Shown here: positions 1 through 21,350 of the stretch, in pieces | How the letters are laid out: the number at the start of each line of letters is the position of its first letter | Numbering within the stretch: position 1 is the first letter of the stretch | Assembly (NCBI GenBank): GCA_040954595.2 | Contig: CM082586.2 | Coordinates: 8,215,337-8,279,336, forward strand | Source: Balanoglossus misakiensis | Lineage: Eukaryota > Animalia > Hemichordata | Direction of reading: 5' to 3' | DNA length: 64,000 bases | The notes under the pieces: model-generated | The model's input: only the letters and a program-made list of their open reading frames with translations | What the model was told of the DNA's origin: nothing | The model's database searches: none | Program-made: the position numbers and the translations under genes

Positions 1-752
1 GGTATATAGAGAAATTCGGAACAAGTTTTTAAAATGTATTTATTACGAAATAATGAAACCCACAGACTTGGAGCAAGTCTACCTGTCTATGGACGCCTCT
101 CATATTTTCGGTTCCCAGAGGTGTCCTTAATAGATAGGTTTCACATTTATTCTTATATTATTTGTTTATTTCATCATGACTTTGCAATTATTTGATTATT
201 TCCTTTTCTTTTAACATTAAACTAAATTTGAAACTTCAAACCAATCACTCAGGTGCGAGTGTTAGTTTAGCTTAAAGGATGCCGAAAATGCAAAGTGACA
301 AAATAAACCTGATAATCGCACTTCATATATGAACCATTACAGACGGGCCACGACATGCAATCATCTCAACGATGCTGCGGTGGGACACGTACATGCACAA
401 TCATGCCAGGTCGTGCATGTGAGCGCTAATGTCCGTGAAAAAATATTCTAGACTGACCAACTCCAGCAAAATTCGTCTGGTCTTATGGGTAAACGTGCAT
501 GGAGACACGTGTATTGGTCAGAACGTTTGACGTCAACGAATTCACTGACATTGACAAAGCCACGCAATCATAATATTGTATGTCCCAATGGCCCATAATG
601 GATGGGTTCAAGTACAAGCTGTGCTCTATGTAATGTATGCTGCCGTCCATGATGGGCCGTTGAGGCGTACCTTGTTGATTAATAAATATGCGTGTATCTC
701 ATACCATAATCTTCACTGTACATGTCTGGTACGAAGTCCAATAACTCTAACC

Positions 753-766
753 GGCCAAGATGGCGA
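753..766 (+). promoter_or_regulatory. YY1-like motif (CAAGATGGCG) just upstream of the start codon; duplicated at ~15161-15174
   Basis: ccaagatggcgagc in a CpG-containing stretch ~75 nt before ATG; motif match only. Confidence 0.3.
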
Positions 767-832
767 GCAGTTACGAGCGTATTTCGGTCGAGCTTAATGC
801 ATTTAGGTGATATTGTATGTTTAGATATAACC

Positions 833-1130
833 ATGGCAACCACTAGCACAGATATCCTTCCCCTCAGGGCTTTATTCCTCAGGTTACATAACGAACTGGG
901 AGAGGAAGAGGTAGCAATACTCAAATATTTACTGTCTGGAAGCCACATTGATGAAAGAGACGCGGAGAAGGCGAGGAATGCACTGGACTTATTCAGGCAG
1001 CTAGAAAAGCGTGGTCATGTGTCGAATACGAATGTGGAACTACTTGTAAACCTGATGAAACATTTAAAACTCGCACAGTTACAGGAAGAAGTGGAGGAGT
1101 TCCAGAGACAATCAACTTCAATGGTAGCAG
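833..1130 (+). CDS. Paralogue A exon 1: death effector domain (DED)
   Basis: LRALFLRLHNELGEEEVAILKYLL...ALDLFRQLEKRGHVSNTNVELLVNLMKHLKLAQLQEEVEEF matches the FADD/caspase-8-type DED pattern; donor CAG|gtaagg at 1130/1131. Confidence 0.85.
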
Positions 1131-4100
1131 GTAAGGCGTTTATAGACTGTACCACTACCAGTGTGTTTAACAGGCAACTACATGTACATGCCGCCATTGT
1201 TGCAGACTGTAACTTAGGGAATTAGGCCGCGTCGCACCGTCGACAGATTTTGGAACGTGTCGTTTGAGAGCCAATCCATTTTAAACGAAATATGTTAAAT
1301 GCGGAGCATATTCAAACACAATGGAAGTATTTTGATTATACATTGCTTTTATAATTTCGAATTAATCCGATTAGAAAAGGAAGTGCACGCAGACATTTGA
1401 AATCATGATTCTATTAAACTGAGTGCATACGTGTGTCAACATGAGACCAACCCCTGGCAATTAATCAAGTACTTGAATCGTGTCTCGCCATGAATAAATC
1501 GCTGGCATTATCGTGAATTCCACGGTGTCGATGCACAGGTATCAGGCCTGGGCGGCTACCCCGGGACATAATAGTCAATTGAGTTCTTCTCACCCATCAC
1601 TTAGCTTAGTGCCCGGTGGGTAAATGTTCAGGGGGTAACTGTCCTAAAACCGTTTGCACTACTTTTTGTCCCTACAATCATCAGGACTTTACCAATAATG
1701 TCAAAAAGTCACTAATACTTCGCTGCTGTCAGAATCGTACGCTGTTTCGTCATTCAATCGCAGCGGAAAATGCCAATTTAATGTAATGAACTCCGTCATA
1801 ACATACTTGAGTTATTCAGGACTCTACTATATATATATTTAAAACCAGTATTTATTGGTTTTTATCAGCAAATGGTGTATTCATATAAACAGTGACAGAG
1901 TGAAACGAGAGTGCCGTTAACTGCACGATTAGTCTGACTTTAAAACGGAAACTGCCATCTGGGGATTGAACGCCGTCACAGCGTATTTGGAGAACAAATC
2001 ACGGGTTATTCACGACTGTACTATGAGTGCAACCAAGATTTCCTGAATTTCTCTCTATCTTCTATAGTACATACATACAAATCGTTCATGACGTACACAA
2101 ATATGCATGGAAATTACACACATGATAATTTCATGTTCAGGAAAATGACAAAATGGTCGTCAAAGCAAATTTTAGTACGAATGCTAAGTAATCGTGAAAA
2201 TGCATGCTAGTCGGCTGAAGACATGGGGGGGGGGGGCTTATTTTTTTCAAATTATTGTAACTGTCACTGTATTTGGTACCGCGATGTATGAAATGTAACT
2301 CTTTTTAATCAAAGATGCCAAGTATTTTCTGCTTCACTTTCAAAGAATCCTCCAAATTAGCTTCTGTAGGGAACAGATCGCAAATTCTGTCATATTGTCA
2401 ACGCACATTTTTACATTTTAATTTTACAACAGGTAAAAGAAGAAGACGACACAGTCTCACTGACCTACAAGGACCGGAAATGCAACCCTGCGTTGGTGAG
2501 TACCATGAAATATTTTACTTAATTTTAGGTCTGGGTCAATAGTGATTATGCTATGGGTCCGTTCTTTAACATCACCAGTTACATTTGTCCCACATTTGAA
2601 TTCTGTATTTTAGTATTCATTCAAGGGACAATATTGTATGTCTTCTCAAAAAGTGACGGCAGTGTGACTGATTTTATAAAATTATATACTCAGAAACGCC
2701 ATTGCGACAATTTCGTCTGTGTTAACTACAATGACTCTTTAATCAAGTATGAAAATACGTCATCTACATGTTGTACATTTTACCCCCACAGATTTCACAG
2801 CTATGCTGACGTTGAAATGCGCAGAGTCAACTGTGGAGTACAAGCTTACCATAAAAGAAAAGTATGAAGAAAATGTCAGAGAATCACTAACCACAGCTAC
2901 AGAGATTTTTGAGAGGGAGTTCAGCCAAACAATTGACGGAAATAATCCCGAGAAAAACAGGTTGATAAAAGAAGCATTTAAACGATTTGAATTGGAATTG
3001 ATCAAGATGAAACGGTCCTCTGTTATACTTACTCTACGGTCATTCAAAATTCGTAGCATAGAACGTTTCCAAGACGGAATGGAAAGTGGTGATGTTGACA
3101 GACAACTGACTGACATATTTGTTACAAAGGCGATGAAAGCACTGATCAAAGACCAACCTTTAGAGTTCCGTGTGGAAGCTCACGTTGACCAATCACAATT
3201 GAAGATGGGAATACAGTACTATAAAGGTAAGAGTTCGCTGACAATACTTTGGTTTCTTTTCGTAGAACATTACGGGAGATTCATTTGATTTCTGGAGTGG
3301 ACGATACGGATAGGTCAGCAATTTTTTTTTTCATCCAGTGTTACAACATTATCTTCTTCAAGACAGTGCAGAGGAATTTGTTTTCTTCTCCACCATCTGC
3401 CAACATTTTTTTTTCTTCAAAAATTCCTTCACCCACCCCGAAGTAAAATGGTTCTCCCCTTAATTTCTAGCATGTGGTGATTTTTTTCAATGGCAGTTCA
3501 TGTTTGTTTATTTTGGCCAGGACAAATTAATACCATGTTCTTTGATATGGATCAGCCATAGTATGTGAATAGGGAATCTTGATCATACCACGAATATAAT
3601 GCATGGCATTATTTTCGGTCCGTTACATTATACATGTATTTGGTTTCTGGACTCTGGTGTGAGCGTTATTGTACAAATTCACTGTTTTGACGGCAGTGAA
3701 TAGTGATGTACATTATTTTGATAAAATTTGTGCAGTTTTCTAATATTTTGTTCCGTATATACTCACAGATTTGCACCAAGACAACCAGGTTTTTGCCGGA
3801 GCCAGGAGCAGAAAATTACAACAACCAAGCCTAGGTGAATTCCCAGGTGTAGATCAACTGAATTTGGTTTCAACAAAATGGCCGGCCAGAGAGGAAGCCG
3901 CGAAGATTGGTCTTGTTATGTTCGAGTGTAGTAATGGATTCCGGAAACGACTACAAGTGGTCACAGTACAACACGACATCGACCAGAGAAAGATCACATA
4001 TCTGGAGCAGACGAAATCTCTCCAACAAGAAGAAATCAAACGACTCCAGAGTGCCAAAGAACGAGCAGAAAAAATAGCTGTGCGTGAGAGGATAAAACGA

Positions 4101-6807
4101 AATGCTCCACCAGTGGTATGTAATGTACACGTGTAATAATGAGGCATTTCTTTCTTTTTGTTTTATAAACCAACTCTGAGTGAATTAATTGTTTGTAAAT
4201 TTGCAAACGCTGTAACTCCAGCTTTAGAGTTACACAATATCTAAGGCTGCAGCGCATGAGAAACTTTATGAGCAAAAAGTTATTCGAGGAATTTTGCTTA
4301 GTAATTTTCCTCTTGTGTGCGTCCGTCTTGAGTAATTTCTCTCACAAGGAAACATATCAAAGTCGTTGAATATTTTGATCCACAGCACAAAAGTATAAAA
4401 AGAAAATCATCAAAAATCGCCGGATATTTGATTAGCAAAATTCCTCGAATGATTTTTCGCACAGCTAAATTCTCTCTTGTGCGACAGCCTTCATACGCCG
4501 TATGCACTTGTCACCCTTCAATTCTCCACATTCATCCTCAATGAACATCGCTATAGCGTCTGTGAATTACTAAGTATTAATATCATTCCTTTTTGAAAAA
4601 CCTTAGCTCTGTTTAAATATGAATTTAGATGTTTTAGTAGCTTTGATGATTTCTTAATTAATACCTTTATCAAACTACATAAACAATAATATAATAATCG
4701 TAGTTGAGCTCTAGAGAGGCTAGGAAAATTCGACAATTTAAAAATGTGAATGTTTTTCTCATTGTATTACTTTCGATAGAAAAGGCCGCAAATGGTGGTG
4801 TTTTGTTTTATATAAAGAATTTTTTTGCACTATTTAAATTTCCAGGACGAAGTCTCCAAAATAAAGCACAAAACGGAAGACGTAGAAGAAGGTCAATGTG
4901 AAGGTTGCAAAGAAACTGAATCGCTACACAGATGCAAAGAATGCAGTGCGAAGTTTTGTTCTTCCTGTATAGTTGTCCATGAAGACACAGAAGCGGTCAA
5001 GGGGCAGAGTGACGTCACACTCGACAAATACTTAGAAGAAATAGCAAGTCAGAAATCACAGCAAAGTCAAGTATACTGCAGCTTTCACACACAGAATGAA
5101 GTACATCTTTTTTGTGATAGTTGTCAAGATTGCATCTGTCCTGAATGTATTGCCAAACATCCAATTCCTGACCATGTCCACAGAGAGATACAAGAAGCAG
5201 CTGATGATTACAGACAACAACTGAGCGAGATGGTGACGAAGTTGAGAAGAAATGAACAGGCCATCAAGTCACGTGACACTGGAAGTGAGACCATCAAAGA
5301 TGACCTGGAAGTACATCGCCAAGAAGCAGAGAAGAAAGTGAGAAATAAAGTAAAAGAGAGAATACAAATGGTGAAGAGGGAAGAGTTCAGACTGGTTGAA
5401 GAATTGAATCTTGGATACAAGGCGACCAGACAAACCATTGAAAGTGAAGTCGACGATTGGGAAGAAATACATGGAAATATTTCCAAGGCATGTGATTATA
5501 TTGACTCACTGGTGCATGATGGGAGTTCTGCTCAACTCATGACGTCCAAGAAACCTACGCTGCTTCGCATTCAAGAATTCGCTCATAAAGTGAATCAATT
5601 CATCAAATGTGAGTTGATCAAATTCAACCCTTCTGCAGACCCTCCAGAGCATGGAATGATGGGATTACTGACATTCGATATCAGTGCATCACAGTGTAGA
5701 GTAGAGGGCATTCCCAAAAGACTCGTCAGGGGTGAGTCTGCTGACGTCATTGTCAGAATCGAAGACAGAAGAGGGAAACCAGTCATATCATACAAAGCAA
5801 TCACAGCAAAGATCTGCAAAGAAGATGGGTCACAAGAGGACGTTGGAGTGGTTGACAACAGAGATGGTACACACAGTGTGAGAATTCATGCAGTTGTCGG
5901 TGGTAGACATGAAGTCAACATAACACTTGGTGATCAGCCGATACCAGGATCACCATTTGTAGTTTCTGTCAAGGGTTTGGTGAAGATAATAGGCAAAGGT
6001 CAGCTTGACACACCACTAGGGATAACTACTAATAAACACGGCGACTTTGTTACAGCTGACCTGGGTAACAATAGGGTACACATAGCCGACAGAGATGGAA
6101 ATCACAAATCAAGTTTAACATTCACACAGTTTGAAAAGCCATTCACACCATACGATGTGGCAATATCAGCTGATGATGAATACTTTGTGACAGATGCCAG
6201 CAACAAACAAGTAGTTGTAAGCGATGAGGATGGAGAAGTACTCAGGCCCTTTGGACAACCTGAACTGAAATATCCCTGTGGAATTGGTATCAGTCCTCTA
6301 GATGGCAGTGTGTATGTCACAGACTATGATGGAAAGGGTAATGACACAGACAAGGAAGGTAGTCACTGTGTCAGGAAATACACACAGCATGGTCAGCACA
6401 TCAAATCCTTTGGAAAGTATGGCACTGAAGAGGGAGAATTCAGAGGACCTGTATATGTGGATATCAACAGTCAAGGAGAAGCATTTGTATCAGATCACAA
6501 CAATAGACGAGTTCAGGTGTTCAGTGCAGACTGTGAGTTTTTATACTCATTTCACAACATCAGCACAGAAGACAGCCTGAAATGGCCATTGGGAATAGTG
6601 ACAGATAAAGACGGAAATGTGTATGTCTGTGACAGAGGACACACACGTGTGGTGAAGTTAGACAGCAGAGGGAGATTCATATCTCGCATTGACAGTGATG
6701 AGGATGGACTTGAGTGGCCAGATGGCATCAGACTGACCAATGATGTACCATGCAGAGTTGCTGTAGTTGACTGCTCCAATAACTGCATTAAAGTGTTTGC
6801 CCAATAA
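833..6807 (+). CDS. Paralogue A: spliced RING-less TRIM-NHL-like protein with N-terminal DED and TRADD-N-like domain (DED-NLS-TRADD-N-CC-Bbox1-Bbox2-CC-filamin-NHL), 1034 aa
   Basis: Exons 833-1130, 2433-2495, 2792-3226, 3769-4115 and 4846-6807 are all bounded by GT..AG, with intron phases 1,1,1,0. They join into one open 3105-nt frame from a Kozak-like aaccATGg to TAA 6805-6807. The same exon structure is conserved in paralogue B. Confidence 0.85.
2433..2495 (+). CDS. Paralogue A exon 2: 63-nt micro-exon with basic KRRRR patch
   Basis: T-rich tract followed by acag|; donor G|gtgagt; phase 1-1; encodes GKRRRRHSLTDLQGPEMQPCV; homologous in-frame exon in copy B. Confidence 0.75.
2792..3226 (+). 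CDS. Paralogue A exon 3: TRADD-N-like domain
   Basis: ccccacag| acceptor (an alternative in-frame AG at 2799-2800); AAAG|gtaaga donor; phase 1-1. ELIKMKRSSVILTLRS..SIERFQDGMESGDVDRQLTDIFVT..LEFRVEAHVDQ resembles the invertebrate TRADD-like N-terminal pattern, judged by eye. Confidence 0.65.
3272..3461. mobile_element. Old MITE in intron 3, also present in copy B (~17673-17852)
   Basis: Degenerate inverted ends (gggagattcatttga ... aaaatggttctcccct) with a T/C-rich interior; diverged homologue at the same site in copy B. Confidence 0.4.
3769..4115 (+). CDS. Paralogue A exon 4: linker and coiled coil
   Basis: ctcacag| acceptor; GTG|gtatgt donor; phase 1-0; heptad-like RKITYLEQTKSLQQEEIKRLQSAKERAEK. 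Confidence 0.75.
4273..4457. repeat. Inverted-repeat element in intron 4, also in copy B (~18644-18834)
   Basis: aaaaagttattcgaggaattttgct ... agcaaaattcctcgaatgattttt. Confidence 0.5.
4846..6807 (+). CDS. Paralogue A exon 5: B-box1, B-box2, coiled coil, filamin and six NHL repeats (TRIM2/3/71-like module)
   Basis: tttccag|GAC acceptor; CEGC..CKEC..FCSSC..H; CSFH..FCDSC..ICPEC..H..H; VVDNRDGTHSV..G.HEVNITL...IPGSPF (filamin); six P-x-G/D..V-x-D..N..V repeats. Confidence 0.92.
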   Translation, partial: DEVSKIKHKTEDVEEGQCEGCKETESLHRCKECSAKFCSSCIVVHEDTEAVKGQSDVTLDKYLEEIASQKSQQSQVYCSFHTQNEVHLFCDSCQDCICPECIAKHPIPDHVHREIQEAADDYRQQLSEMVTKLRRNEQAIKSRDTGSETIKDDLEVHRQEAEKKVRNKVKERIQMVKREEFRLVEELNLGYKATRQTIESEVDDWEEIHGNISKACDYIDSLVHDGSSAQLMTSKKPTLLRIQEFAHKVNQFIKCELIKFNPSADPPEHGMMGLLTFDISASQCRVEGIPKRLVRGESADVIVRIEDRRGKPVISYKAITAKICKEDGSQEDVGVVDNRDGTHSVRIHAVVGGRHEVNITLGDQPIPGSPFVVSVKGLVKIIGKGQLDTPLGITTNKHGDFVTADLGNNRVHIADRDGNHKSSLTFTQFEKPFTPYDVAISADDEYFVTDASNKQVVVSDEDGEVLRPFGQPELKYPCGIGISPLDGSVYVTDYDGKGNDTDKEGSHCVRKYTQHGQHIKSFGKYGTEEGEFRGPVYVDINSQGEAFVSDHNNRRVQVFSADCEFLYSFHNISTEDSLKWPLGIVTDKDGNVYVCDRGHTRVVKLDSRGRFISRIDSDEDGLEWPDGIRLTNDVPCRVAVVDCSNNCIKVFAQ

Positions 6808-9800
6808 ACACAGCAGCAAATGTTGTGTATCCTGGAAGGGAGAAAGAAAACAAAGAAACGGTGAGAATTTCACCAATACACGCAGAACAATAGTGTCACT
6901 GAGGATGAAGGGAAACATGAATAGAATTGGTGTACTATTGTTACTACTAGTATGTTCCACAATAACTTACAACAAAAAATATTGTAGAATACTAGTATTT
7001 TATATGTTGGATACGGTGGCTAGTCAGACTATGCTGCTAAATAAATATAAACTCACAATTATTCAAGGAATAAATTAAAAAGGATATTAAATTAACAGAG
7101 ATGTAAATTTAAAGTGTTGACAATGTGATGTGTGCAATTGCTGAATCCCTCAAAAGAAAGCTCTGATACCGTGTAAAGAAAATAACACAAATGTCAGATC
7201 TGAGGGTAAGCAATTTGCTTCAAAAACTCTGAGAGATTCCCAAAAGTTGATGAACTCAGTAAATAGTGAGCATCACATTTGGTAACTAACCAGACCACAG
7301 AAAGTAGTGCAGCAACCGGGAAGAATATTTGCACAGTGACAAATGAAAGCTTTTAGCAGAAGATTTTGCCGTTTAATAAGTATTTGTTTTATTGGAAAAG
7401 GAGGAACTCCTTGAATTGTGAATTTTTAAAATATACTTTATTCCTTTGGACGTAAAAGTATATAAACAGCGCTAAAATCGTGCGCACAATAAGACAGTTA
7501 TTTTGTAGAGATTTTGGTTTACTAGACTTCACATCATTTTGAGTTCTATCACAAATGACGTGTTTTCAAAAATTGAAAATATTGTAAATTTATTGGTTTT
7601 AATCAGCAAATTGGGTTTTCATAAATACCGGTTGAGTGAAACGAGATTGCCTTTAACAGTACTGTTAAAATATGAGTTAACATTGAGATACAAAGTATAC
7701 AAGGAAATGTTTTATTACCCAGAAAGATGAAGAATTTCAGAACTATTTTTATCTATAATGTGCTTCTTCAGTTTTGTTATCTTCTTTGGTTTTGTTTAAA
7801 TAGCCGATGTATTCTGAGATTTTAATAAAAAAGCAGATCACATTTGATGTTTGGATGTCCTTTTTCATTAAAAATGATACTAAGGAGTTACTACACTAAT
7901 GGAAAAAATGGATGATATTATAAAATCATATGATTTATAATTTGTGATGATAACATGATGCCAAAATTGAAATACATTTCCAATACATTTGCTGACATAA
8001 AATGTCACACCCCACTTGCTCCACCTGTATTCGAAAAATGTACAGCTGTGAATGAAAATAAAATATTGCCTGATATGTAGGGATGACGAATATCAAAAAC
8101 AAAGTTGACGGAAAGAAGATGAGACCTGAGACGCTGAGACCAAATAGAAAGGGAACCAAAAATGACATTTAATGATGTCATTATTTTGACCAGTTTCCTG
8201 CAGGACGACGCATTGTGTCCATGCGTGACCTAAGGTCAAGTTTCGATAGTATTTAAGACTTTGCGTGATAACGAAACACGTTTATTAGCACAGAGGGAGC
8301 TATATGTGTTCAACCCTGAGAGAAAATTTAGCCAAATATCCAGTAAGAACTGTTTAAACGTTAAAACACCGTTAAAACCAAAGAACGAAGTTACTACACG
8401 CCACAGATAAACTCATTTTAAATGGAGGGGTTTTTCGACGAAACCAAGGAATCCTCCTCACACATGTCGTTATCAAAATCACTTAAGCCCCCTCCATCAG
8501 AATATGACTGCTTCAAAGAAAGTTGCTAATAAATCCGGGTATAATTAACTGACAAAGTTTTAAAGTCATATCAACAAACTGTTATTGAAGTCTTTGTATC
8601 AGACGGCCAATATTTCTTGTCAACAAGCAATAAAATGAGGGTTGACATTTCAATGAGGTCATATAATGATTACTGTATTGCACGGGCATAGGGAATACAT
8701 GTACAAGGTAATTTAACCACCAGCTGCGATCTACATTGATATCCCTATTACTGTGTATGAATCTCTGATTCTAAATGCAATTCGGTTCAAAATTTGCCAG
8801 ATTTAATAATAATATGTACCAATAGAAACAATGGGCTTATTAAGTCTTGGCAGGTGGCTAGTTTTGACTTCAGAAGTGGGTCAATGATTGGCCTTCTCCT
8901 TGTCTTTATGGTAATCAATAAATGTTAGCAGACACAAGTGCGCGGTGCTTTATGTCTTTATCAGACATGTCTGTTGCGAAGAAGTACAAGGATGACACGG
9001 TCTTCTTTAATCGACGATTTATTCCATGGATGCGAACCAATACGAAAAACCAAACCTATAGACCCATTCAGACAAAAACTATTTACAAGTCTTGGGCCAA
9101 AACTTTAACTACAGTGGGACAACACTGTTAGGCCTTTCAAATATTCAAATAAAGTATTGACATGCAAAATAAAGAGTTAAAATGCAAATTAAGTATGACG
9201 GGAGTGGTTCTTCTTTTCTCCAATGTCCTTTACACAAACAAACATGCATAGCTGAACTGCCAGTCTGTCGTTTGACCACAGTGGAACTTGTATTAGTAGA
9301 ATATGTTGAACGGGTTCACAATCTGAAGGGGGTTGTGGCGCAGAATTGTCTGACAATGAGGTAACACAGTATGGTCATAGTATGGGGTAAATCCCAGCCA
9401 AAATACAATTATTTAATAATTTAGCTACAGTTACCATGGTAAATTTAGATCAAGTCAATCACAGATTTTCAGAGGGTGGCACTATATGTTCTTCAGAACA
9501 CTCAGAAACGCTATTTTTGCCATTTATGGACATATGTAAATTGGAGGTGGTCGTGTACCTTTAACTGAGGCTTCGGTCAAAATCGCATGCTCGAACGACA
9601 AAAGCGAGCTCGAGACACGGGTGAACCAATACAAGTTGTCTGCCACCAGGCATGAGTTGTCATCATTCCTCTGGGCCTGGTGTTTTCACAAGTGTAGAAC
9701 ACACAACATAGACACAGGTTGGGCCGTAACTTGTCAACCGAATTATGTTTAAAACGCCCATTGAGTTGACTGTTGGGACCAATACTGACAAAGAGGCAAT

Positions 9801-10075
9801 TACGCATGAATTATTGCCTGGTGTATATGAATAGACGTGACGAATTTCAAAAGCCAAGTTATACTATACGAAACAGTGACAGGTATTGTGTAAGTTTTTT
9901 TCCAAAGCGGTTTCTGTCTGGACACTGTGAGCAAGTAGGAAGGGAACCAAAACTGACATTTAATGATGTCATTACAATGACCAGTTACCCGCAGGATGAC
10001 GCATTGTGTCCATGCGTGACCTAAGGTCAAGTTTCAATAGTATTTAAGACTTTGCGTGATAACGAAACACGTTTA

Positions 10076-10875
10076 GGCTGCATTCACAAACACCTCTGGA
10101 GGGGGGGGCGGGAGAATTCAATTTTTTTTACCGTTAATTTTCACATGCCCCCCTCAACAACCCGAAATATTTTCAAATCCCCCCCTTCCGAACTGCTAAA
10201 ATTTTCAAATCCCCCCCCCCCCATTTTCTTTCACTCAGCAAAACACATCACCTATCTATCTTGTAAAAAAGAAAAACAGCGCTCCCATGAAAAGAATTTG
10301 AAACTGATGTTTCCCCTCATCAGTGGGTATTAAAACTGAACATTGTTTTTATTTTTTAAGTATCTGTATTCTGTGTTGGGAGACATTGTAAACCAAGAAT
10401 TGAAGGGGGTGGGTTTGGGAGGGGGTGTCCCCCTCCCACGTAAGAAAATTTTATAAAATACAGAGCTCAAAAGCTGCATTTTAATGAACCTGGCAAAAGC
10501 ACATTAACTCAACTACCGGTATGTAGGGGAGGACAAATTTAACCGCCGCCGCTCAAAGTTATCATGGGGTGGGGGCAAGTCCCCTGACCTGGGACACTAG
10601 ATAAACCAGTCAATGTTTGAAAGGTGTTGATAAATGGAGGGGGTGGGTGTGGGAGGGGGTGTCCCCCTCCCACATTAGAAAATTTTGTAAAATAAAGGGC
10701 GCGAAACTGCATTTTTGTGGACTCAAAATAAATATTTAGTCGTCAAAGTTTTCAAGTCCCCCCCTTTCAGTCCCTAAATTATTTCAAATCCCCCCCCTTG
10801 CATACCCTCAATTTTTTCAAATCCCCCCCCTCAATTCTCCTGCCCCCCCCTCCAGAGGTGTTTGTGAATGCAGCC
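10076..10875. mobile_element. PIF/Harbinger-type (Tourist-like) MITE, 800 bp
   Basis: Perfect 34-bp TIR ggctgcattcacaaacacctctggaggggggggc; TTA TSD (10073-10075 and 10876-10878). The empty site acacgtTTAttagcac is visible in sister repeat units at ~8276 and ~13097. Confidence 0.9.
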
Positions 10876-12068
10876 TTATTAGCACAGAGGGAGCTATATG
10901 TGTTCCACCCTGAGAGAAAATTCAGCCAACTATCCCGTAAGAACTGTTTAAACGTTAAAACACCGAAGTTACTACACGCCATAGATCAACTCATTTAAAA
11001 TGGAGGTGGTTTCCGACGAAACCATAGAATCCTACTCACACATGTCATTATCAAAATCACTTAAGCTCCCCTTCCTCAGAATATGGCTGCTTCAAAGAAA
11101 ATTGCTAATAAATCTGGGTATAATTAACAGCCAAAGTTCTAAAGTCATATCTACAAACTTTTATTGAAGTCTTTGTATCAGACGGCCCATATTTCTTGTC
11201 AACAAGCCGTAAAATGTGGGTTGACATTTCAATGAGGTCATATAAAGATTACTGTATAGCACGGGCATAGGGAATAGACGTACAAGGTAATTAAACCACC
11301 AGCCGCGATCTACATTGATTTCCTTATTCCTGTATGTAAGTCTCTGATTCTAAATGCACATCGGTTCGAAATTCGCCAGATTTAATAATAATAATATGTA
11401 CCAATAGAAACAATCCTGTGCGCTTCTTAAGTCTTGGCAGGTCGCCAGTTTTGGCTTCAGAAGTCGGTCAATGATTGGCCTTCTCCTTATCTCTATGGTA
11501 ATTAATAAATGTTAGCAGACACAAGTGCGCGTTGCTTTATGTTTTTATCAGACATGTCCTTAACACAAACAAACATGCATAGCTGAACTGCCAGTCTGCC
11601 GTTTGACTACAGTGGAACTTGTTTTAGTAGAATATGTTGAACGGGTCCACACTCTGAAGGGGGTGTGGCGCAGAATTGTCTGACAATGAGGTAACACAGA
11701 ATGGTCATAGTATGGGGTGAGATCCCAGCTAAAATGCATTTATTTATTAATTTAATCGCTACAGTTACCATGGTAAATTGAGATCAAGCCAATCACAGAT
11801 TTCAGTGGTTGGCACCATATGTTCTTCAGAACACTCAGAAACGCTATTTTTGCCATTTATGGACATATGTAAATTGGAGGAGGCCGTGTACCTTTAACTG
11901 AGGCTTCAGTCAAAATCGCATGCTCGAACGACAAAAGCGAGCTCGAGACACGGGTGAACCAATACAAGTTGTCTGCCACCAGGCATGAGTTGTCATCATT
12001 CCTCTGGGCCTGGTGTTTTCACAAGTGTAGAACACACAACATAGACACAGGTTGGGCCGTAACTTGTC

Positions 12069-12790
12069 TTATCATATGCCTATATTCACGTGCCCATGTA
12101 AAGTCTATGGGGAAAAGCGCCCTCACATCCGTGCAGTTTTTTTGCTTATCACGCCCCGGCCCGGTGACCATATTTGGAAGACGCGTTCACTATCCGGATC
12201 TAGTTTTGTGTTTATTGCGCGAGATTCGAAAGTTGTCGTTGCTACGTTCTGAATTAATTTTTTTCTGCTGCGGTGTCAGTGACTAGTGCGCCGCTACCGA
12301 ATCCCATCCTCTTCCATAATCGCTGCATGTTGTAGAGCCTTATTTGGAAATATGAATAGTAAAATTGATGATTTGATCTGATTAATGTGTGACTGTCGGC
12401 GTCGATCGTCGCGAAGAAAAAATAATGTTTTGCTCGCGCTCGGCTGTGTGAGTTCGAGCGCGTCTACATCTCACGTGCAATAGAATGTAAACAAATGACA
12501 TCGTGCATATCAATCCGCAAGAACTGGAGGAATGCGGCTCTATGCTACGCGATTGATCATTTCAAAACGATAGATAAAAGCGTAATATTTACATTCCAAA
12601 ATATTACAGAATGTGTATTTTATTAATTTCTTGTTGATTATTATTCAATAAGGCATATGATAAAACCTTTACGGCCCTGATACGGGTTTTGCGGCCCTCG
12701 GTCGTACGGCGATCCGCGCCCTCCCTGCGGTCGGGCGCTTCCGCCGTACGACCTCGGGCCACAAAACCCGTATCAGGGCCGTAAAGATTA
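12069..12790. mobile_element. 722-bp non-autonomous element with asymmetric subterminal inverted repeat and a ~120-bp terminal hairpin, no TSD (HINE/Helentron-like or Crypton-like)
   Basis: Absent from the sister unit (aacttgtc|aaccgaatt at ~9735). ttatcatatgcct (12069-12081) is inverted as aggcatatgataa (12651-12663). Hairpin 12667-12786 has perfect 25-bp outer arms. Confidence 0.7.
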
Positions 12791-14063
12791 AACCGAATTA
12801 TGTTTAAAACGCCCATTGAGTTGACTGTTGGGACCAATACTGACAATGAGGCAATTACGCATGAATTATTGCCTGATTATAGGGATAGATGTGACGAATT
12901 TCAAAAGCCAAGTTGTACTATACGAAACAGTGACAGGCATTGTGTCAGTTTTTTTCCAAAGCGGTTTCTATCATGACACTGTGAGCAAGTAGGAAGGGAA
13001 CCAAAACTGACCAGTTTCCTGCAGGACGACGCATTGTGTCCATGCGTGGCCTAAGGTCAAGTTTCAATAGTATTTAAGACTTTGCGTGATAACGAAACAC
13101 GTTTATTAGCACATAGGGATAGATGAGACGATTTTTTTGTCATTTGATGTCATTGACCAGTTACCTGCAGGAAGGTCAGGTTTCACTAGTAGACTTTGGC
13201 ACAGAGGGAGCTGTATGGTTCGACCCTGAGACTACAACATTCAGCCAACTATCTTGTAAGAACTGTTTAAACACCGTTATAATTAAACTGAAGAACGAAG
13301 TTTGTACAACTCACAGATTAGTCAATTGGAAATGGATGTGATCATCGGCGAAACCATTGAAGGAATCGTCACACACATGTATGTCGTTATCAAAATCACT
13401 TATGTTCCCTCCCTAGAATATGAATGATTCAAAGAAAGTTGCCAATAAATCCTGTGTTAATTTATAACAGCCAGAGTTTTAAATTCATATCTCCAAACTT
13501 GTATTGCAACAGAAGACCCATAGTTCTTGTCAACAAGCCAGAAAATAATTATTCACATTCCAATGAGTTCATATAGATATTACTGTATAGTCGGACAAGG
13601 GGTCATACAAGGGAATTAAACCAACAGCCGCGATCTACATTGATTTCCCTATTCCTGAGTATGAGTCTCTGATTCTAAATCCACGTCGGGTCAAAATTCA
13701 CCAGATTTAGTAATAATGTCTATCGATAGAAAAAATTGTGCGCTCTTATTAACTTTTTGGCGTACCAGGCAGTTCGCAGTTTGGGCCAATAAAGTCGGTC
13801 AATTATTGGCCCTCTCCTTATCTCCATGGTTATCAATAAATGTCAGCCAGTCAGACATGTCTTAACACAAACATGCATAGCTGCAAAAACTGACAGCCCG
13901 CCCTTTGACCACAGTGGAACTTGTATTAATAGAATATGTCGTAGGGGTTTACAATTTGTAATACGGGGGTGGGGTGGGGTGGGGTGCAGACTTGTCTTAC
14001 ATTGAGAAAACCCAGAATAGTCATAGTTTGTGAAGGGGGGGGGGGGTGAGATCCCAGCCAAAA

Positions 14064-14553
14064 TACAGTGCACGTGAAACCTGTCATTACGGACGGACAC
14101 CTCTCTATTAAGGACAGATTTTTCAAGACAAATGTCACTGTTGGAATAGAATTTTACCTGTCTATAAGACTAGCCCACTAGTCGCTTGGTGATTTTTGAA
14201 TCTCAATACTTTTTGTGTTCGCGGGTTTTTTATCTTAATAAATAATTTCAAAACTTTTTTGCGTGCATGCTTGCTTTGAGCGTGTTTCTAGTAGTGAGTT
14301 TAGTTTCGAGTTTTGGACTGAGCTCACGGTTTCGGTTAGCGTCGACCAAGCCTACGCGTTCCCTTGACGTACATACGCGCTCACACTCGGTGACTTTTAC
14401 TCCACACACGGTACATAGAGAAATTCGGAACAAATTTTTAAAATGTATTTATTACGAAATAATGAAACCCACAGACTTGGAGCAAGTCTACCTGTCTATG
14501 GACGCCTCTCATATTTTCGGTTCCCAGAGGTGTCCTTAATAGATAAGTTTCAC
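14064..14553. mobile_element. Degenerate tacagtgaaacctg..gtttcac-type MITE with a nested ~325-bp insert (14166-14490); right part also at 1-143
   Basis: Ends tacagtg(cac)gtgaaacctgtc ... gtgtccttaatagataagtttcac. The inner segment aagact...agtcta is flanked by the 9-bp direct repeat cctgtctat. Confidence 0.4.
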
Positions 14554-15240
14554 ATTTATTCTTATATTATTTGTTTATTTCATCATGACTTTGCAATTAT
14601 TTGATTATTTCCTTTTCTTTTAACATTAAACTAAATTTGAAACTTCAAACCAATCACTCAGGTGCGAGTGTTAGTTTAGCTTAAAGGATGCCGAAAATGC
14701 AAAGTGACAAAATAAACCTGATAATCGCACTTCATATATGAACCATTACAGACGGGCCACGACATGCAATCATCTCAACGATGCTGCGGTGGGACACGTA
14801 CATGCACAATCATGCCAGGTCGTGCATGTGAGCGCTAATGTCCGTGAAAAAATATTCAAGACTGACAAACTCCAGCAACATTCGTCTGGTCTTATAGGTA
14901 ACGTGCATGGAGACACGTGTATTGGTCAGAACGTTTGACGTCAACGAATTCACTGACATTGACAAAGCCACGCAATCATAATATTGTATGTCCCAATGGC
15001 CCATAATGGATGGGTTCAAGTACAATCTGTGCTCTATGTAATGTATGCTGCCGTCCATGATGGGCCGTTGAGGCGTACCTTGTTGATTAATAAATATGCG
15101 TGTATCGCATACCATAATCTTCACTGAACATGTCTGGTCTGAAGTCCAATAACTCTAACCGGCCAAGATGGCGAGCAGTTACGAGCGTATTTCGGTCGAG
15201 CTTAATGCATTTAGGTGATATTGTATGTTTAAATATAACC

Positions 15241-15538
15241 ATGGCAACCACTAGCACAGATATCCTTCCCCTCAGGGCTTTATTCCTCAGGTTACATAAC
15301 GAACTGGGTGAGGAAGAGGTAGCAATACTCAAATATTTACTGTCTGGAAGCCACATTGATGAAAGAGACGCGGAGAAGGCGAGGAATGCACTGGACTTAT
15401 TCAGGCAGCTAGAAAAGCGTGGTCATGTGTCTGATACGAATGTGGAACTACTTGTAAACCTGATGAAACATTTAAAACTCGCACAGTTACAGGAAGAAGT
15501 GGAGGAGTTCCAGAGACAATCAAAATCGGTTGCAGCAG
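15241..15538 (+). CDS. Paralogue B exon 1: DED
   Basis: Nearly identical to 833-1130, with one N/D change in the DED core; donor CAG|gtaagg. Confidence 0.85.
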
Positions 15539-18500
15539 GTAAGGCGTTAACAGACTGTAGCACTACCAATGTGTGTTTAGCAGGCTACTACGTGCCGCCA
15601 TTGTTGCAGACTGTAACCGTCGGGGAAATTGGCCATGTCGCACGACATATTTTGGAACGTGTCGTTTGAGAGCGAATCCAAATTAAAAGAAATATGGAGC
15701 ATATTCAAACATAATGGAAGTATTTGGGTTGTATACTTTATTTGGTAATTTCGAATCAATCCGATCAGAAAAGGGAGTTCAAACATTTGAATTCATGATT
15801 CGGTTGAACTGAGTGTAAGAGTGTTAACATGAAACCTCTGGCAATAAATAACGAAGTACTTGAATCGTGTCTCGTCATAAATAAATTGCTGGCATTATCG
15901 TGAATGTACATTCCACGGTATTGATACAATGGTATCAAGGCGATCACCCCGGGACATTTACCAATTGAGTACTTGTTACCCACCACTTAGCTGAGTGCCC
16001 GGTTGGTAATTGTTCAGGTGGTACCTGTCCTACTGCACTACTTGTTGTTCATACAATGGTCGGGGAATTACCAAGGATATCAAAACGTCACAAATACTTC
16101 ACTGCTGTCAGAATCGTAAGCTGTTCCATCGATATCATTCAAATCGCAGCGGAAAGGCCAATTTCTTGTATTGAATGAACTCCGTCAAAACATAATCGGA
16201 GAATAAAACCGCACATGAATCATGACTCTAATATGAGTATAACTATAATTTCCCGAAGTTCAGCCTCACTTCTACAAGCACAGTATCGATCAAGACGTAC
16301 ATAAATACTGTACATATGAAAATAACACGCTTGATAAGTATATGTTCAGAAATTACACATTGTTCCAAAATGGAAAATGTGTCTAAATGTTGGCCATCAT
16401 GTTAAGTTTTTTTTTTATAAAAGTTTATCGTGAATGCTACAAACTAATCGTAAAAATACATGCTGTTAATAATATCGTCCAAACAAATTGTTTTGGGAAT
16501 GTTGTGTATTATTACTTTAATTTTGGAGTGCAGCACTGATGTAGACAAAGCCTTTCTTTCAGCTCTACGGTCATGGACACTGTAGACTTTATCAGATAAA
16601 CAGATTGTGTGCCGTCGTTTATCTGGATCCGCAACTGTCGTCTGTAAAAATGGAGTGACTTTAAAAAAGATAATAGTATCTGTCACTGCAGTTGGGAACC
16701 CCGATATACAACCCCCGTGTTTTTATCAAATATGTCCTGTATTTCAGAAAATTTTGCTACACTTTCCAAGAATGCTTCAAATTTCTCATTAAAGCTTCTG
16801 TAGGGAACAGATCGTATATTGAAATTCTGTCATACTATCAACGCATTTTTATTTTACAAGGGGAAAGAAGAAGAAGGCGAGGCAGTGTCACTGGACCAGA
16901 AATGCAGCCGTGCGTTGGTGAGTATCATGATATATTTTACTTGATTTGAGGTAGTCATTTCTTTACCATCACCTAGTTATGTTTGTCCCAAATATCAGTT
17001 AATGCACGTTGAATTCTGTGTTTTAGTATTCATTCAAGGGACAATGTATGCCTACTGTAAATGTGTATTTCAATGCAGTGGGAATGATTTTTTAATAATG
17101 TACTCAGAAATGACATGGGGCAATTTCGTCTGTGTTAATTAACTATTTTTTAATCAAAAGTATATAAATACATCACTTATACATTTGTACTTTATCTCCC
17201 ACAGATTTCATAGTAATGTTGTCGTTGGTCTTGACATTCATGAAGTCAACTGTGGAGTATATGATGCAAGAAATGATCAAGCAATTACTGAGCACATCCA
17301 CAGAGATTTTTGAGAGGGAGTTCAGCGAAACAATTGGTGGAAATAATCCAGAGATGAAGAGATTGATAAGAGAAGTATTTAAACGATTGGGATTGGAACC
17401 GAATAAAATGGAACGGTCCTCTGTTAAACTGACTCTACGGTCATTGAACATTCGAAGCATAGAACGTTTCCAAGACGGAATGGACAGTGGTGATGTTGAC
17501 AGACAACTGACTGACATATTTGTTACAAAGGCGATGAAAGCACTGATCAAAGACCAACCTTTAGAGTTCCGTGTGGAAGCTCACGTTGACCAATCACAAT
17601 TGAAGATGGGGATACAGTACTTTAAAGGTAAGAGTTCGCTGGCAATACAGGGGTTTTTCTTTTGTAGAATATTATGGAGAACTATTTGATTTGGAGGGGG
17701 TTAGGTATGTTAGCAAAATATCATTTAGGCACTGTTACAGCAAATTTCTTATTCAATTGTCAGTCCACCATTTTCTTCAAGGCATTACAGAAGAATAGTT
17801 TTACGTCCCAACCATCTGCTAGTTGCCCCTGGAAATCAAATTGTTCTCGCCTAAATATCTAGCATTTCGTGATTTCTTTCATTGGCAGTTAACGTTTTTT
17901 GTATTTTGGCCAGGACAAATGAATACCATGTTCTTTGATATGGATCAGCCATAGTATCTGAAAAGAGAATCTTGATCATACCACGAATATAATACAACTG
18001 TAAATGTACCGGTACATCTTGACTCTGGTGTGAGCGTTATTGTAGAAATTCACTGGTTTGACGGCAGTGTATAGTGATGTACATTATTTTGATACGTTTT
18101 GTGCAGTTTTCTAATATTTTGTTCTGTATATGCTTACAGATTTGCACCAAGAAAACAAGGTATTTGCCGGAGCCAGGAGCCGAAAATTACAGCAACCGAG
18201 CCTAGATCAATTCCCCTGTGTAAATCAACTGAATTTGATTTTAACAAAATGGCCGGCCAGACAGGACGTGGCAAAGTTTGGTTTAGTTATGTTAAAGTGT
18301 AGTAAACGACTAAAAGTGGTCACACAACAACACGACATCGCACAGAGAAAGATCACATATCTGGAGCAGACGAAATCTCTCCAACAAGAAGAAATCAATC
18401 GGCTCCAGAGTGACAAAGAACGAGCAGAAACAATAGCTGTGCGTGAGAGGACAAAACGAATTGCTCCACCAGTGGTATGTCAAAATTAAAAATTCACGTC

Positions 18501-21350
18501 TAGTAATGAGGTATTTCTACGCTGAAAAAATGTTTTATAAACTCTGAGTGAAATAGTGTTTGTAAAATTGCAGACGCTGTGACGTCAGCTTTAGAGTACA
18601 ATCATATCTTATGTCTGCAGCGCATAAGAGAAATTTCCTGAGCAAAAAGTCATTCAAGGAATTTTGCTCAGTAATTTTCCTCTTGTGTGCGTCAGTCTTA
18701 AGTAATTTCTCTCACAAGGAAAAATATCAAACACGTCGAATATTTTGATCCACAGCACAAAAGTAATAAAAATCACAAAAAATCGCCCGAACACGAGTGG
18801 AAATTTGTTTAGCAAAATTCCTTGAATGACTTTTCGCACAACTAAATTCTCTCGTGTGAGGCAGCTTTTATAGGCCGTATACACTTGCCACCCTGCAATA
18901 CTACACATTCTTCCTCAATGAACATCACTAGCTTCTTTTAACTAATAATACAAATCCTTTCTCAGAATCTTAGCCCTGTTTCAATAATGTATTTATATGT
19001 TTTACTAGTTTTGATGATTTCTTAATTAATACCTGAACACTAATATCACAATTGTAGGTGAGCTCTGGAGGCTAAGAAAAGTCGCTAATTGAAAATGTGA
19101 ATGTTTTTCTGAGTGCATGACTTCGAGATAGTAAAAGCCACAGATACACTATCAATTGAGAAAACACACTAGCATACATGAACATTTTAAGGCAAGACTG
19201 ATCTAGCTCAGTCATAATGAAAACGGAATCATTATATAACATAGAGACCTGTACGAAATTTGATGAAAACAGAGTGCCCTGCACCCGGGGCCTTGCTAAA
19301 TTATCACAGGATGAATTTAGTCAACGTTTGTTCATCACTGCAAAATAAAACTTTACTCACCAATTTTGATTTTCGCACTTATTTCCAGGACGAAGTTCCT
19401 CATAAAAAGCACAGAACAGAAGACGTAGAAGAAGGTCAATGTGAAGGTTGCAAAGAAACTGAATCGCTACAGAGATGCAAAGAATGCAGTGCGAAGTTTT
19501 GTTCTTCCTGTATAGTTGTCCATGAAGACACAGAAGCGGTCAAAGGTCAGAGTGACGTCACACTCGACAAATACTTAGAAGAAATATCAAGTCAGAAATC
19601 ACAGCAAAGTCAAGTATACTGCAGCTTTCACACACAGAATGAAGTACATCTGTTTTGTGATAGTTGTCAAGTATGCATCTGTCCTGAATGTACTGCCAAA
19701 CATCCAATTCCTGACCATGTCCACAGAGAGATACACAAAGCAGCTGATGATTACAGACAACAACTGGGCGAGATGGTGACGAAGTTGAGAAGAAATGAAC
19801 AGGCCTTCAAGTCACGTGACCCTGGAGACGAGACCATCAAAGATGACCTGGAAGTGCATCGTCAAGAGGAAGAGGAGAAAGTGAGAAATAAAGCAAAAAA
19901 GAGAATAAAAATGGTGAAGAGGGAAGAGTTCAGACTGGTTGAAGAGATGAATCTTGGATACAAGGCGACCAGACAAACCATTGAAAGTGAAGTCGATGAC
20001 TGGGAAGAAATACATGGAAATATTTCCAAGGCATGCCGTTATATTGACGCACTGGTGCATGATGGGAGTTCTGCTCAACTCATGACGTCCAAGAAACCGA
20101 CTATGCTTCGCATTCAAGAATTCGCTCATAAAGTGAATCAATTCATCAAATGTGAGTTGATCAAATTCAACCCTTCTGCAGACCCTCCAGAGCATGGAAT
20201 GCTGGGATTACTGACATTAGATATCAGTGCATCACAGTGTAGAGTAGAGGGCATTCCCAAAAGACTCGTCAGGGGTGAGTCTGCTGACGTCATTGTCAGA
20301 ATCGAAGACAGAAAAGGAAAACCAGTCACACCATACAAAGCAATCACAGCAAAGATCTGCAAAGAAGATGGGTCACAAGAGGACGTTGGAGTGGTTGACA
20401 ACAGAGATGGTACACACAGTGTGAGAATTCATGCAGATGTCGGTGGTAGACATGAAGTCAACATAACACTTGGTGATCAGCCGATACCAGGATCACCATT
20501 TGTAATTTCTGTTAAGGGTTTGGTGAAGATAATAGGCAAAGGTCAGCTTGACAATCCAGTAGGGATAACTACTAATAAACACGGTGACTTTGTTACAGCT
20601 GACCTGGTTAACCATAGGGTACACATAACCGACAGAGATGGAAATCACAAATCAAGTTTGTCGTTCACACAGTTTGAAAAACCATTTCAACCACTGGATG
20701 TGGCAGTATCAGCTGGTGATGAATACTTCATGACAGATAAAAGCAACAAACAAGTAGTTGTAAGCGATGAGGATGGAGAAGTACTCAGGCACTTTGGACA
20801 ACCTGAACTGATATATCCCTGTGGAATTGGTATCAGTCCTTTAGATGGCAGTGTGTATGTCACAGACTGGGATGGAGTGGGTGTTGACACAGACAAGGAA
20901 GGTAGTCACTGTGTCAGGAAATACACACAGCATGGTCAGCACATCACATCCTTTGGAAAGCACGGCACTGAAGAGGGAGAATTCAGAGGACCTGCATATG
21001 TGGATATCAACAGTGAAGGAGAAGCATTTGTATCAGATACGAACAATAACCGAGTTCAGGTGTTCAGTGCAGACTGTGAGTTTTTATACTCATTTCACAA
21101 CATCAGCACAGAAGACAGCCTGCAATGGCCCAATGGAATAGTGACAGATAAAGACGGAAATGTGTATGTCTGTGATGAGGGAAACAAACGTGTGGTAAAG
21201 TTAGATAGCAGAGGGAGATTCATATCTCGCATTGACAGTGATGAGGATGGACTTGAGTCGCCAGCTGGTATCACACTGACCAATGATGTGCCATGCAGAG
21301 TGGCTGTAGTTGACCATGGAAATGACTGCATTAAAGTATTTGCCCAATAA
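15241..21350 (+). CDS. Paralogue B: DED-NLS-TRADD-N-like-CC-Bbox1-Bbox2-CC-filamin-NHL protein, 1024 aa
   Basis: Exons 15241-15538, 16861-16917, 17205-17627, 18140-18474 and 19389-21350; GT..AG introns, phases 1,1,1,0; open 3075-nt frame; all exon length differences from A are multiples of 3. Confidence 0.85.
16861..16917 (+). CDS. Paralogue B exon 2: 57-nt basic micro-exon
   Basis: ttttacaag| and G|gtgagt; encodes GERRRRRGSVTGPEMQPCV. Confidence 0.7.
17205..17627 (+). CDS. Paralogue B exon 3: TRADD-N-like domain
   Basis: cccacag| and AAAG|gtaaga; 423 nt, phase 1-1; 3' half nearly identical to copy A. Confidence 0.65.
18140..18474 (+). CDS. Paralogue B exon 4: linker and coiled coil
   Basis: cttacag| and GTG|gtatgt; phase 1-0. 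Confidence 0.75.
19389..21350 (+). CDS. Paralogue B exon 5: B-boxes, coiled coil, filamin, NHL repeats
   Basis: tttccag|GAC acceptor; 1962 nt, same length as copy A; same domain motifs. Confidence 0.92.
   Translation, partial: DEVPHKKHRTEDVEEGQCEGCKETESLQRCKECSAKFCSSCIVVHEDTEAVKGQSDVTLDKYLEEISSQKSQQSQVYCSFHTQNEVHLFCDSCQVCICPECTAKHPIPDHVHREIHKAADDYRQQLGEMVTKLRRNEQAFKSRDPGDETIKDDLEVHRQEEEEKVRNKAKKRIKMVKREEFRLVEEMNLGYKATRQTIESEVDDWEEIHGNISKACRYIDALVHDGSSAQLMTSKKPTMLRIQEFAHKVNQFIKCELIKFNPSADPPEHGMLGLLTLDISASQCRVEGIPKRLVRGESADVIVRIEDRKGKPVTPYKAITAKICKEDGSQEDVGVVDNRDGTHSVRIHADVGGRHEVNITLGDQPIPGSPFVISVKGLVKIIGKGQLDNPVGITTNKHGDFVTADLVNHRVHITDRDGNHKSSLSFTQFEKPFQPLDVAVSAGDEYFMTDKSNKQVVVSDEDGEVLRHFGQPELIYPCGIGISPLDGSVYVTDWDGVGVDTDKEGSHCVRKYTQHGQHITSFGKHGTEEGEFRGPAYVDINSEGEAFVSDTNNNRVQVFSADCEFLYSFHNISTEDSLQWPNGIVTDKDGNVYVCDEGNKRVVKLDSRGRFISRIDSDEDGLESPAGITLTNDVPCRVAVVDHGNDCIKVFAQ

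Follow-up and report, generated by a model that had tools for sequence, protein, structure and literature searches.

Two paralogous DED-headed TRIM-NHL genes with a hypervariable ligand face

We analyzed a stretch of 64 000 nt from the hemichordate Balanoglossus misakiensis (assembly GCA_040954595.2, contig CM082586.2, positions 8,215,337 to 8,279,336, forward strand; 'the window' in the following), which carries two paralogous genes on its forward strand, copy 1 (833..6807) and copy 2 (15241..21350). Both predicted proteins contain, in the same order, a death effector domain (DED), a TRADD-N-like domain, a coiled coil, two B-boxes, a further coiled coil, a filamin domain and a six-bladed NHL propeller. 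Change between the two copies is concentrated on the ligand face of this propeller and exceeds the divergence of the introns, which is new in this analysis. Taking the whole chain of proposed steps together, we consider it slightly more probable than its negation that the two paralogues would act as cytosolic immune sensors, clustering on a foreign ligand and recruiting DED-bearing caspase-8/FADD-like partners. The published comparisons made below draw on Kaur et al. 2021 (PMC8195603) and on PMC5908797, PMC9634614, PMC2173221 and PMC4455283.

The NHL propeller with the hypervariable face was delimited by Pfam and by site comparison between the copies (5971..6804 in copy 1, 20514-21347 in copy 2). 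In the alignment of exon 5 the differences between the copies cluster near each blade-opening Pro and just past the Asp that ends strand b. We defined 30 ligand-face sites as the position classes P-2, P-1, P+1, D+1 and D+2 and mapped LIN41 onto them via the 6fpt alignment; all 14 RNA-contact residues of LIN41 named by Kumari et al. fall in these five classes. At the ligand face 17 of 30 sites differ between the copies, compared to 17 of the remaining 248 NHL sites (P = 2e-10) and to 2 of 44 sites in the loops of the opposite face (P = 5e-7). Counting only first and second codon positions of the ligand face, 25 of 60 differ, versus 14-18% of positions in the four introns (P <= 7e-5). Elsewhere the copies diverge at 17 of 218 four-fold sites and by 7% in the 3' flank, and silent change in codons that kept the same residue is not raised at the ligand face (1/13 versus 13/231). 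The pattern is not limited to this pair: in each of the five clades tested, among them three RING-bearing hemichordate clades and one of ENA proteins (3.3-5.2-fold in these), these sites are 3.2-5.2 times more variable than the others.

Gene models of the two copies

In copy 1, exon 1 (833..1130) contains the start codon and the DED (Pfam match at about 866-1111, 58.9 bits, cut-off 35.9). It is followed by a 21-codon linker in exon 2 (2433..2495; GT-AG, phase 1-1), whose basic run ends in RRxS, by the TRADD-N-like domain of the DEDD2 clade in exon 3 (2792..3226), with a turn motif composed of a tiny residue and Ser at 3016-3021, and by exon 4 (3769..4115), which encodes a conserved segment following TRADD-N and the first long helix, a predicted coiled coil. 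Exon 5 (4846..6807) holds B-box1 (from 4897), B-box2 (5068-5175), a coiled coil, the filamin domain (5683-5961), the NHL propeller and the stop codon. Copy 2 is built in the same way, with a DED in exon 1 (15241..15538; Pfam 58.7 bits, 96% identity to copy 1), a 19-codon basic linker in exon 2 (16861..16917; GT-AG, phase 1-1), the TRADD-N-like domain in exon 3 (17205..17627; 76% identity), the post-TRADD-N segment and predicted coiled coil in exon 4 (18140..18474; 80% identity) and the two B-boxes, coiled coil, filamin (20226-20504), NHL propeller and stop codon in exon 5 (19389..21350).

Splicing was deduced from the sequence, so that the gene models are predictions. All four junctions of copy 1 (1130/2433, 2495/2792, 3226/3769 and 4115/4846) are GT-AG with phases 1, 1, 1 and 0 and yield a stop-free protein of 1034 aa; the five exons of copy 2 join by GT-AG in the same phases into a stop-free protein of 1024 aa. 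An earlier note on this DNA, made from the sequence alone, had read the open reading frames as two intact proteins of about 1030 aa, and this reading holds. The two proteins are 87% identical over 1022 aligned residues, and exon 5 aligns gap-free over 653 aa with 90% identity. The RefSeq protein XP_070539273.1 of Ptychodera flava (P0003, 1046 aa) aligns in a single high-scoring pair with residues 10-1034 of copy 1 (50% identity), carries a DED, two B-boxes, filamin and NHL by Pfam and is colinear across all copy 1 junctions. In copy 1, intron 4 contains no poly(A)-like hexamer and the first in-frame Met of exon 5 is exon residue 129, downstream of both B-boxes. Because the phases are kept in two diverged copies, the P. 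flava protein is colinear and no Met precedes the B-boxes of copy 1 exon 5, the prediction that each copy is one gene joining the head exons and the TRIM-NHL exon is supported. The same note had described a tandem gene family. The duplication is evident (unit of about 1-8380 versus 14410-22880), but the window holds one pair only, since self-BLAST and tblastn with six relatives revealed just two copies within the 64 kb.

The region upstream of the genes together with most of exon 1 (1..1100 versus 14410-15510) is nearly identical between the copies. Of the 831 upstream bases that could be aligned, 13 differ (1.6%), versus 14-18% in the introns. The upstream region and the DED exon share 98% identity, intron 1 only 86%, and differences rise sharply past position 1100, for which reason the promoter and the DED were likely homogenized recently by gene conversion.

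Domains of the head and the TRIM body

DED, Filamin and NHL pass the curated Pfam cut-offs in both copies. The zf-B_box scores stay marginally under the cut-off (23.4 and 21.6 bits versus 24.1), a Pfam B-box reaches 34.6 bits over two stretches in XP_070539273.1, and both B-boxes were recognized by their Cys/His spacing. For exon 3 and copy 1 exon 4 there was no Pfam match at E <= 0.1. The domain order previously proposed is retained, with exon 3 assigned by model, fold search and homology as described below. The best PDB sequence matches of exon 1 are caspase-8 and FADD, and in the alignment with caspase-8 DED2 its Phe-Leu pair is matched by Tyr32-Leu33 of the window DED; the DED is the most conserved region between the copies (dN/dS 0.35). 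Exon 5 matches Thin, TRIM3, TRIM2 and TRIM71 in the PDB, and in exon 4 53 of 114 aligned residues are identical to XP_070539273.1. The structural model of the latter protein shows a helix at 318-394 with a predicted local distance difference test score (pLDDT) of about 40-60, long helices at 502-603 and 24 propeller strands. Its top Foldseek match is the filamin-NHL part of LIN41 (E 2e-27), and the NHL domain of TRIM2 is matched with a TM score of 0.87. With a full-length pLDDT of 64.5, a predicted TM score of 0.41 and weakly modelled DED, B-boxes and coiled coils, the model was used for local folds only and fixes no domain arrangement.

The linker between DED and TRADD-N contains an RRx[S/T] motif in both copies (2433-2495, 16861-16917) and in XP_070539273.1 (109-112). 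We take it to be a protein kinase A-type consensus, which may allow control by phosphorylation and recalls the linker regulation of pyrin. The adjoining KRRRR was tried as a conserved nuclear localization signal and rejected, as the polybasic run is only RR in XP_070539273.1. B-box1 (4897-5010; 19440-19555) lacks the last His found in three RING-bearing relatives, and XP_070539273.1 shows the same loss.

Exon 3 encodes a TRADD-N-like domain of the DEDD2 clade

The AlphaFold2 model of exon 3, computed from a 7-row alignment, reached a pLDDT of 83 and contains strands at 2-11, 68-73, 78-82 and 123-131 and split helices, in agreement with the TRADD-N fold, a two-layer alpha+beta sandwich of four strands and kinked helices. 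In a VIA comparison against 48 161 structural representatives, its best match was the TRADD-N structure 1f2h (Z 6.7, root mean square deviation 4.2, 107 aligned residues), with the next match, at Z 5.9, inside the tie margin; among 662 Foldseek-ranked chains the best VIA match was the TRADD-N structure 1f3v (Z 8.3, root mean square deviation 3.0, 108 aligned residues), with the next other fold at 5.8. Foldseek alone returned no match for this model at E <= 0.001 (E 0.18), the Pfam families TRADD_N and TRADD-like_N gave no score on exon 3 or on its three Saccoglossus/Ptychodera homologues, and a PDB sequence search with the exon 3 profile gave one weak, unrelated match (E 0.07). The Atlas puts exon 3 with TRADD-like_N clusters (0.94, 222/256 features), in which the family is found on 23-54% of the members and the recognition value is under threshold.

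Homology was decisive. Searching with phmmer among 1.84 billion representatives we obtained four matches: XP_070539273.1 (43% identity over exon 3), P. flava XP_070568941.1 and two Saccoglossus genes, LOC102809883 (E 1.3e-6) and LOC102805649 (E 1.2e-5), which Kaur et al. 2021 (PMC8195603) list as TRADDN-DEDD2+Coiled-coil and DED+TRADDN-DEDD2+Coiled-coil, respectively. According to the same authors a tiny residue followed by Ser at the beta2-beta3 turn (uS turn) defines these domains (PMC8195603); in exon 3 the turn between strands 68-73 and 78-82 is Ser-Ser or Gly-Ser, and the second Ser is invariant in all six aligned domains. From this homology, together with the model and the fold search, exon 3 is a TRADD-N-like domain of the DEDD2 clade and not of vertebrate TRADD, and the TRADD-N fold expected for it beforehand was found. 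The similarity to LOC102805649 extends into exon 4 (residues 156-304) and therefore suggests that TRADD-N and the following segment arrived as one unit; the DED of this gene was unmatched to the window DED in that BLAST. When exon 3 by itself was used for a word-index search of longer proteins, this yielded 0 of 242 candidates, although XP_070539273.1 is 43% identical, and a six-row exon 3 profile returned only its own four source proteins among 7993 scored. In XP_070568941.1 a GT4-conflict glycosyltransferase domain is followed by a coiled coil and then by the TRADD-N-like domain homologous to exon 3.

Absence of the RING and relatives of the genes

Neither protein contains a RING pattern, Pfam finds none, and searches of the window in six frames with a RING-head hidden Markov model and tblastn detected no remnant, including upstream of exon 5. 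With both head domains identified as well, the claim that the RING has been replaced by a DED and a TRADD-N-fold domain agrees with our results. The nearest named relatives are found in P. flava (up to 68% identity over exon 5), then in Glandiceps and Saccoglossus, and many RING-bearing hemichordate TRIM-NHL members share 40-48% identity. In two trees the copies group with five P. flava proteins as one clade, supported at 100, and the neighbouring clades are mostly RING-bearing. The first is a quick IQ-TREE of 52 rows, for which 5 of the 55 rows fetched had been left out because their coverage was short; the second is a FastTree of 40 rows, after removal of 12 long-branch or outlying ones. A RING is missing from every one of the seven members; a DED is present in four, and one begins within the TRADD-N domain. 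Searches of limited sensitivity retrieved no Saccoglossus or Glandiceps members of the clade. The simplest reading of these sequences is that the head was replaced once, in the line from which P. flava and B. misakiensis descend. One P. flava protein, XP_070554797.1 (P0012, 467 aa), has a DED (45% identity to exon 1) joined straight to filamin-NHL and is either a minimal version or a mis-joined model.

Proposed mechanism and alternative explanations

The following steps would extend the gene models, domains, RING absence, clade and ligand-face change reported above into a sensor mechanism. A spliced DED-TRADD-N-coiled-coil head would have taken the place of the RING in a single member of a hemichordate TRIM-NHL expansion that was already diversifying. 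The output would thereby change from ubiquitin tagging to a death fold, the same change that PYD brought about in pyrin. The top face of the NHL propeller would bind a variable and probably repetitive invader ligand, with a protein or glycan likelier than an RNA hairpin of the LIN41 type. TRIM coiled coils are antiparallel dimers, a form apt for recognizing oligomers of higher order; the one described here would form the usual dimer and B-box2 would support higher-order assembly, so that a multivalent ligand would cluster the heads. DEDs assemble with caspase-8 and FADD, and clustered DEDs would nucleate a filament of DEDs together with an initiator caspase or an adaptor, leading to cell death or inflammatory signalling. 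Until binding, the TRADD-N-like domain would hold the DED off as a conformational switch, following the proposal of Kaur et al. 2021 that TRADD-N is a switch contacting flanking domains (PMC8195603).

Several points weigh against this mechanism. The selection test compares two DNA sequences only, and the site set was first drawn after viewing the alignment and then checked against LIN41. Moreover, in 7 of the 17 changed ligand-face codons every base is altered, and Nei-Gojobori estimates on a wider 42-site set gave a local dS of 0.33 and a dN of 0.49, a ratio of about 1.5 (about 4.7 versus the exon-wide dS). Ligand-face variation is common to RING-bearing relatives and therefore says nothing specific about a DED output; in developmental TRIM-NHLs, too, the top face of the NHL domain differs from one paralogue subfamily to another. 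The whole head is found in only one of the five P. flava clade models, P0001, P0002 and P0098 being modelled with a partial head or none. The trees do not fix the root, so that loss rather than gain of the RING follows by parsimony and from knowledge of the TRIM family.

An alternative that we regard as unlikely takes the head as a DEDD/DEDD2-like scaffold or decoy, which would steer effector caspases to the target of the propeller or dampen DED filaments like cFLIP-type proteins, perhaps inside the nucleus by means of the basic linker. RxDL is a motif of DEDs and is missing from the window DED, as it is from the aligned caspase-8 DED2, which also counts against the sensor mechanism; a basic run follows the DED in both copies. 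Among the Atlas clusters, those nearest to residues 1-400 of XP_070539273.1 hold proteins of 307-354 aa that combine DED and TRADD-like_N (score 0.77), which serves as a lead only. Human DEDD, which combines a DED with a TRADD-like domain, has nuclear localization signals, is partly nucleolar and scaffolds caspase-3 on keratins, and it does not colocalize with caspase-8 in apoptotic cells, which likewise speaks against the proposed partners. Against this alternative, the polybasic run is shortened to RR in XP_070539273.1, and a decoy or housekeeping scaffold offers no reason for the fast-changing propeller face.

It is improbable, in our estimate, that the TRADD-N-like domain recruits a TRAF E3 ligase that replaces the RING in trans while the DED recruits FADD/caspase-8, as in a soluble mimic of the TNFR complex. 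The structure best matched by exon 3 is the TRAF2-bound TRADD-N (Z 8.3), and the invariant Ser of the uS turn corresponds by motif to the TRAF2-contacting Ser67. Yet exon 3 is only 15% identical to TRADD, its homologues belong to the DEDD2 clade, and Kaur et al. see no MATH expansion beside the TRADD-N expansions, so that MATH is not a universal partner (PMC8195603). Exon 3 is also less conserved between the copies than the DED (76% versus 96% identity), unlike an interface for a conserved host partner. The wiring to TRAF that the earlier note had drawn is therefore not upheld.

We assign a similarly low probability to a RING-less post-transcriptional regulator of the Brat type, whose NHL domain would bind host or viral RNA and whose head would be accessory. 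The nearest solved structures are indeed TRIM-NHL propellers, several of them RNA-binding; NHL faces can evolve different RNA-binding solutions (Kumari et al.), and acidic patches, carried by Mei-P26 and Wech, are compatible with RNA binding, a further caution for our preference of protein or glycan ligands. RNA-virus targets are stressed for the DED+TRADD-N class by Kaur et al. (PMC8195603). However, the positions of the Arg/Lys ring of LIN41 are basic in 0 of 8 cases in copy 1 and 1 of 8 in copy 2, by which an RNA pocket of the LIN41 type was rejected, the NHL domains are net acidic (K+R 31 and 26 versus D+E 44 and 45 in the two copies), and over half of the face differs between copies that are 87% identical. 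Least of all, we expect the DED/TRADD-N exons and the TRIM-NHL exon to be separate genes or alternative transcripts: the headless or partly headed P. flava models and the direct DED-filamin joint would fit, and in copy 2 poly(A)-like hexamers occur in intron 4, along with two Met codons that lie upstream and in frame, but the shared splice phases, the independent colinear RefSeq model and the lack of a hexamer or usable Met in copy 1 make this very improbable.

Relation to known systems

Constant DED+TRADD-N heads with variable C-termini have been described by Kaur et al. in marine invertebrates including hemichordates, together with fusions to TRIM ligase domains, and propellers were proposed as sensors of invaders (PMC8195603). 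Their supplement contains a coral protein with DED+DED+TRADD-N+coiled-coil+filamin+propeller, and an oyster B-box+propeller C-terminus on a DED+TRADD-N head is catalogued as well (PMC8195603). In supplement 4 we did not find the hemichordate layout with one DED and two B-boxes: all eight filamin rows are cnidarian, the 26 BBOX places covered, of 30 in all, come from corals or oyster, and the 24 rows of Saccoglossus include neither a B-box nor filamin (PMC8195603). High propeller variability is noted there for amphioxus NCOA6-clade proteins, and no selection on a ligand face was found in the parts of that paper examined (PMC8195603). The literature searched, mostly without subscription papers, yielded no studies of these genes, of their function or of selection on invertebrate NHL faces. 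The design is thus computationally catalogued, while the exact layout and the ligand-face divergence were not seen in the parts covered; the novelty suggested by the earlier note is overstated, since DED+TRADD-N heads on filamin+propeller or B-box+propeller bodies are on record.

Like the DEDD2-clade proteins of Kaur et al., the window proteins have an N-terminal DED, a TRADD-N with uS turn, a coiled coil and a variable C-terminal module, show lineage-specific duplication and a predicted immune role, and are directly homologous in exon 3 to the two listed Saccoglossus genes; they differ in the combination of one DED and two B-boxes with a complete TRIM body. DEDD/DEDD2 (FLAME-3) share the order of DED, basic linker and TRADD-like N domain, but nothing further follows in these clusters of 307-354 aa, while here the dyad heads a TRIM-NHL body of 650 aa and the Pfam family TRADD-like_N does not score on exon 3. 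In contrast to vertebrate TRADD, the exons scanned contain no Death domain and exon 3 is not scored by TRADD_N; the classic TRADD-N clade is confined to vertebrates (Kaur et al., PMC8195603). TRIM2, TRIM3, TRIM71/LIN-41 and the 'TRIM2-like/TRIM71-like' expansions of hemichordates share B-box1, B-box2, coiled coil, filamin and six-bladed NHL, but the window proteins lack a RING, the last B-box1 His of the three RING-bearing relatives and the Arg/Lys ring of LIN41.

With pyrin/TRIM20 (PYD - B-box - coiled coil - B30.2) they have in common a death-fold domain in place of the RING on a TRIM scaffold and a C-terminal recognition domain. A DED stands where pyrin has PYD, and filamin-NHL where it has B30.2; the window proteins also have two B-boxes and, in addition, a TRADD-N-like domain with a coiled coil. 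As there is no sign of shared origin, pyrin is an analogue only. The logic of effector, oligomerizer and repeat sensor and the lineage-specific expansion are also those of NLRs. However, neither a NACHT/NB-ARC nucleoside triphosphatase (NTPase) was found by Pfam in the exons scanned and in XP_070539273.1, nor leucine-rich repeats, and oligomerization would rest on coiled coil and B-box. Of the NLR-like sensor design first proposed, the sensor type is backed by the ligand-face hypervariability, whereas pyrin is the closer analogue since there is no NTPase.

Other features of the window

The spacer between the copies (8130-14067) contains several mutually similar repeats of 100-900 bases, one of them also near 56550, which are probably transposon remnants. 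About 5 kb 3' of copy 2, fragments of a long terminal repeat retrotransposon with reverse transcriptase and RNase H in different frames were found (26378-27275, forward strand), and a 711-codon open frame on the reverse strand (49569-51701) encodes a reverse transcriptase of a non-LTR element, LINE-type by appearance (Pfam RVT_1, 113 bits). Retrotransposons near DEDD2-clade genes were noted by Kaur et al. (PMC8195603). At 43488-43730 on the forward strand lies a coding exon, the first of a gene resembling GABA-B receptor subunit 1 (E 1e-9 to GABA-B R1), which seems to encode a signal peptide.

Implications for hemichordate immunity

A wider view, which we offer tentatively, is that the TRIM-NHL expansions of marine invertebrates are a so far unrecognized class of diversified cytosolic pattern receptors, in which a TRIM dimer carries propellers of hypervariable top face and outputs are swappable (RING for tagging with ubiquitin or DED-TRADD-N for death signals); the window genes would then be the 'pyrin of acorn worms', with promoter and DED homogenized and the ligand face driven apart. 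If the sensor mechanism is true, a receptor scaffold would be added to invertebrate deuterostome immunity beside TLRs and NLRs. The TRADD-N switch model of Kaur et al. would become directly testable, as there are paralogues with near-identical DED and differing ligand face and RING-headed relatives with the same body. It would also suggest that many hemichordate genes automatically named 'TRIM2-like/TRIM71-like E3 ligase' may be diversifying recognition proteins, some of them without a ligase domain.

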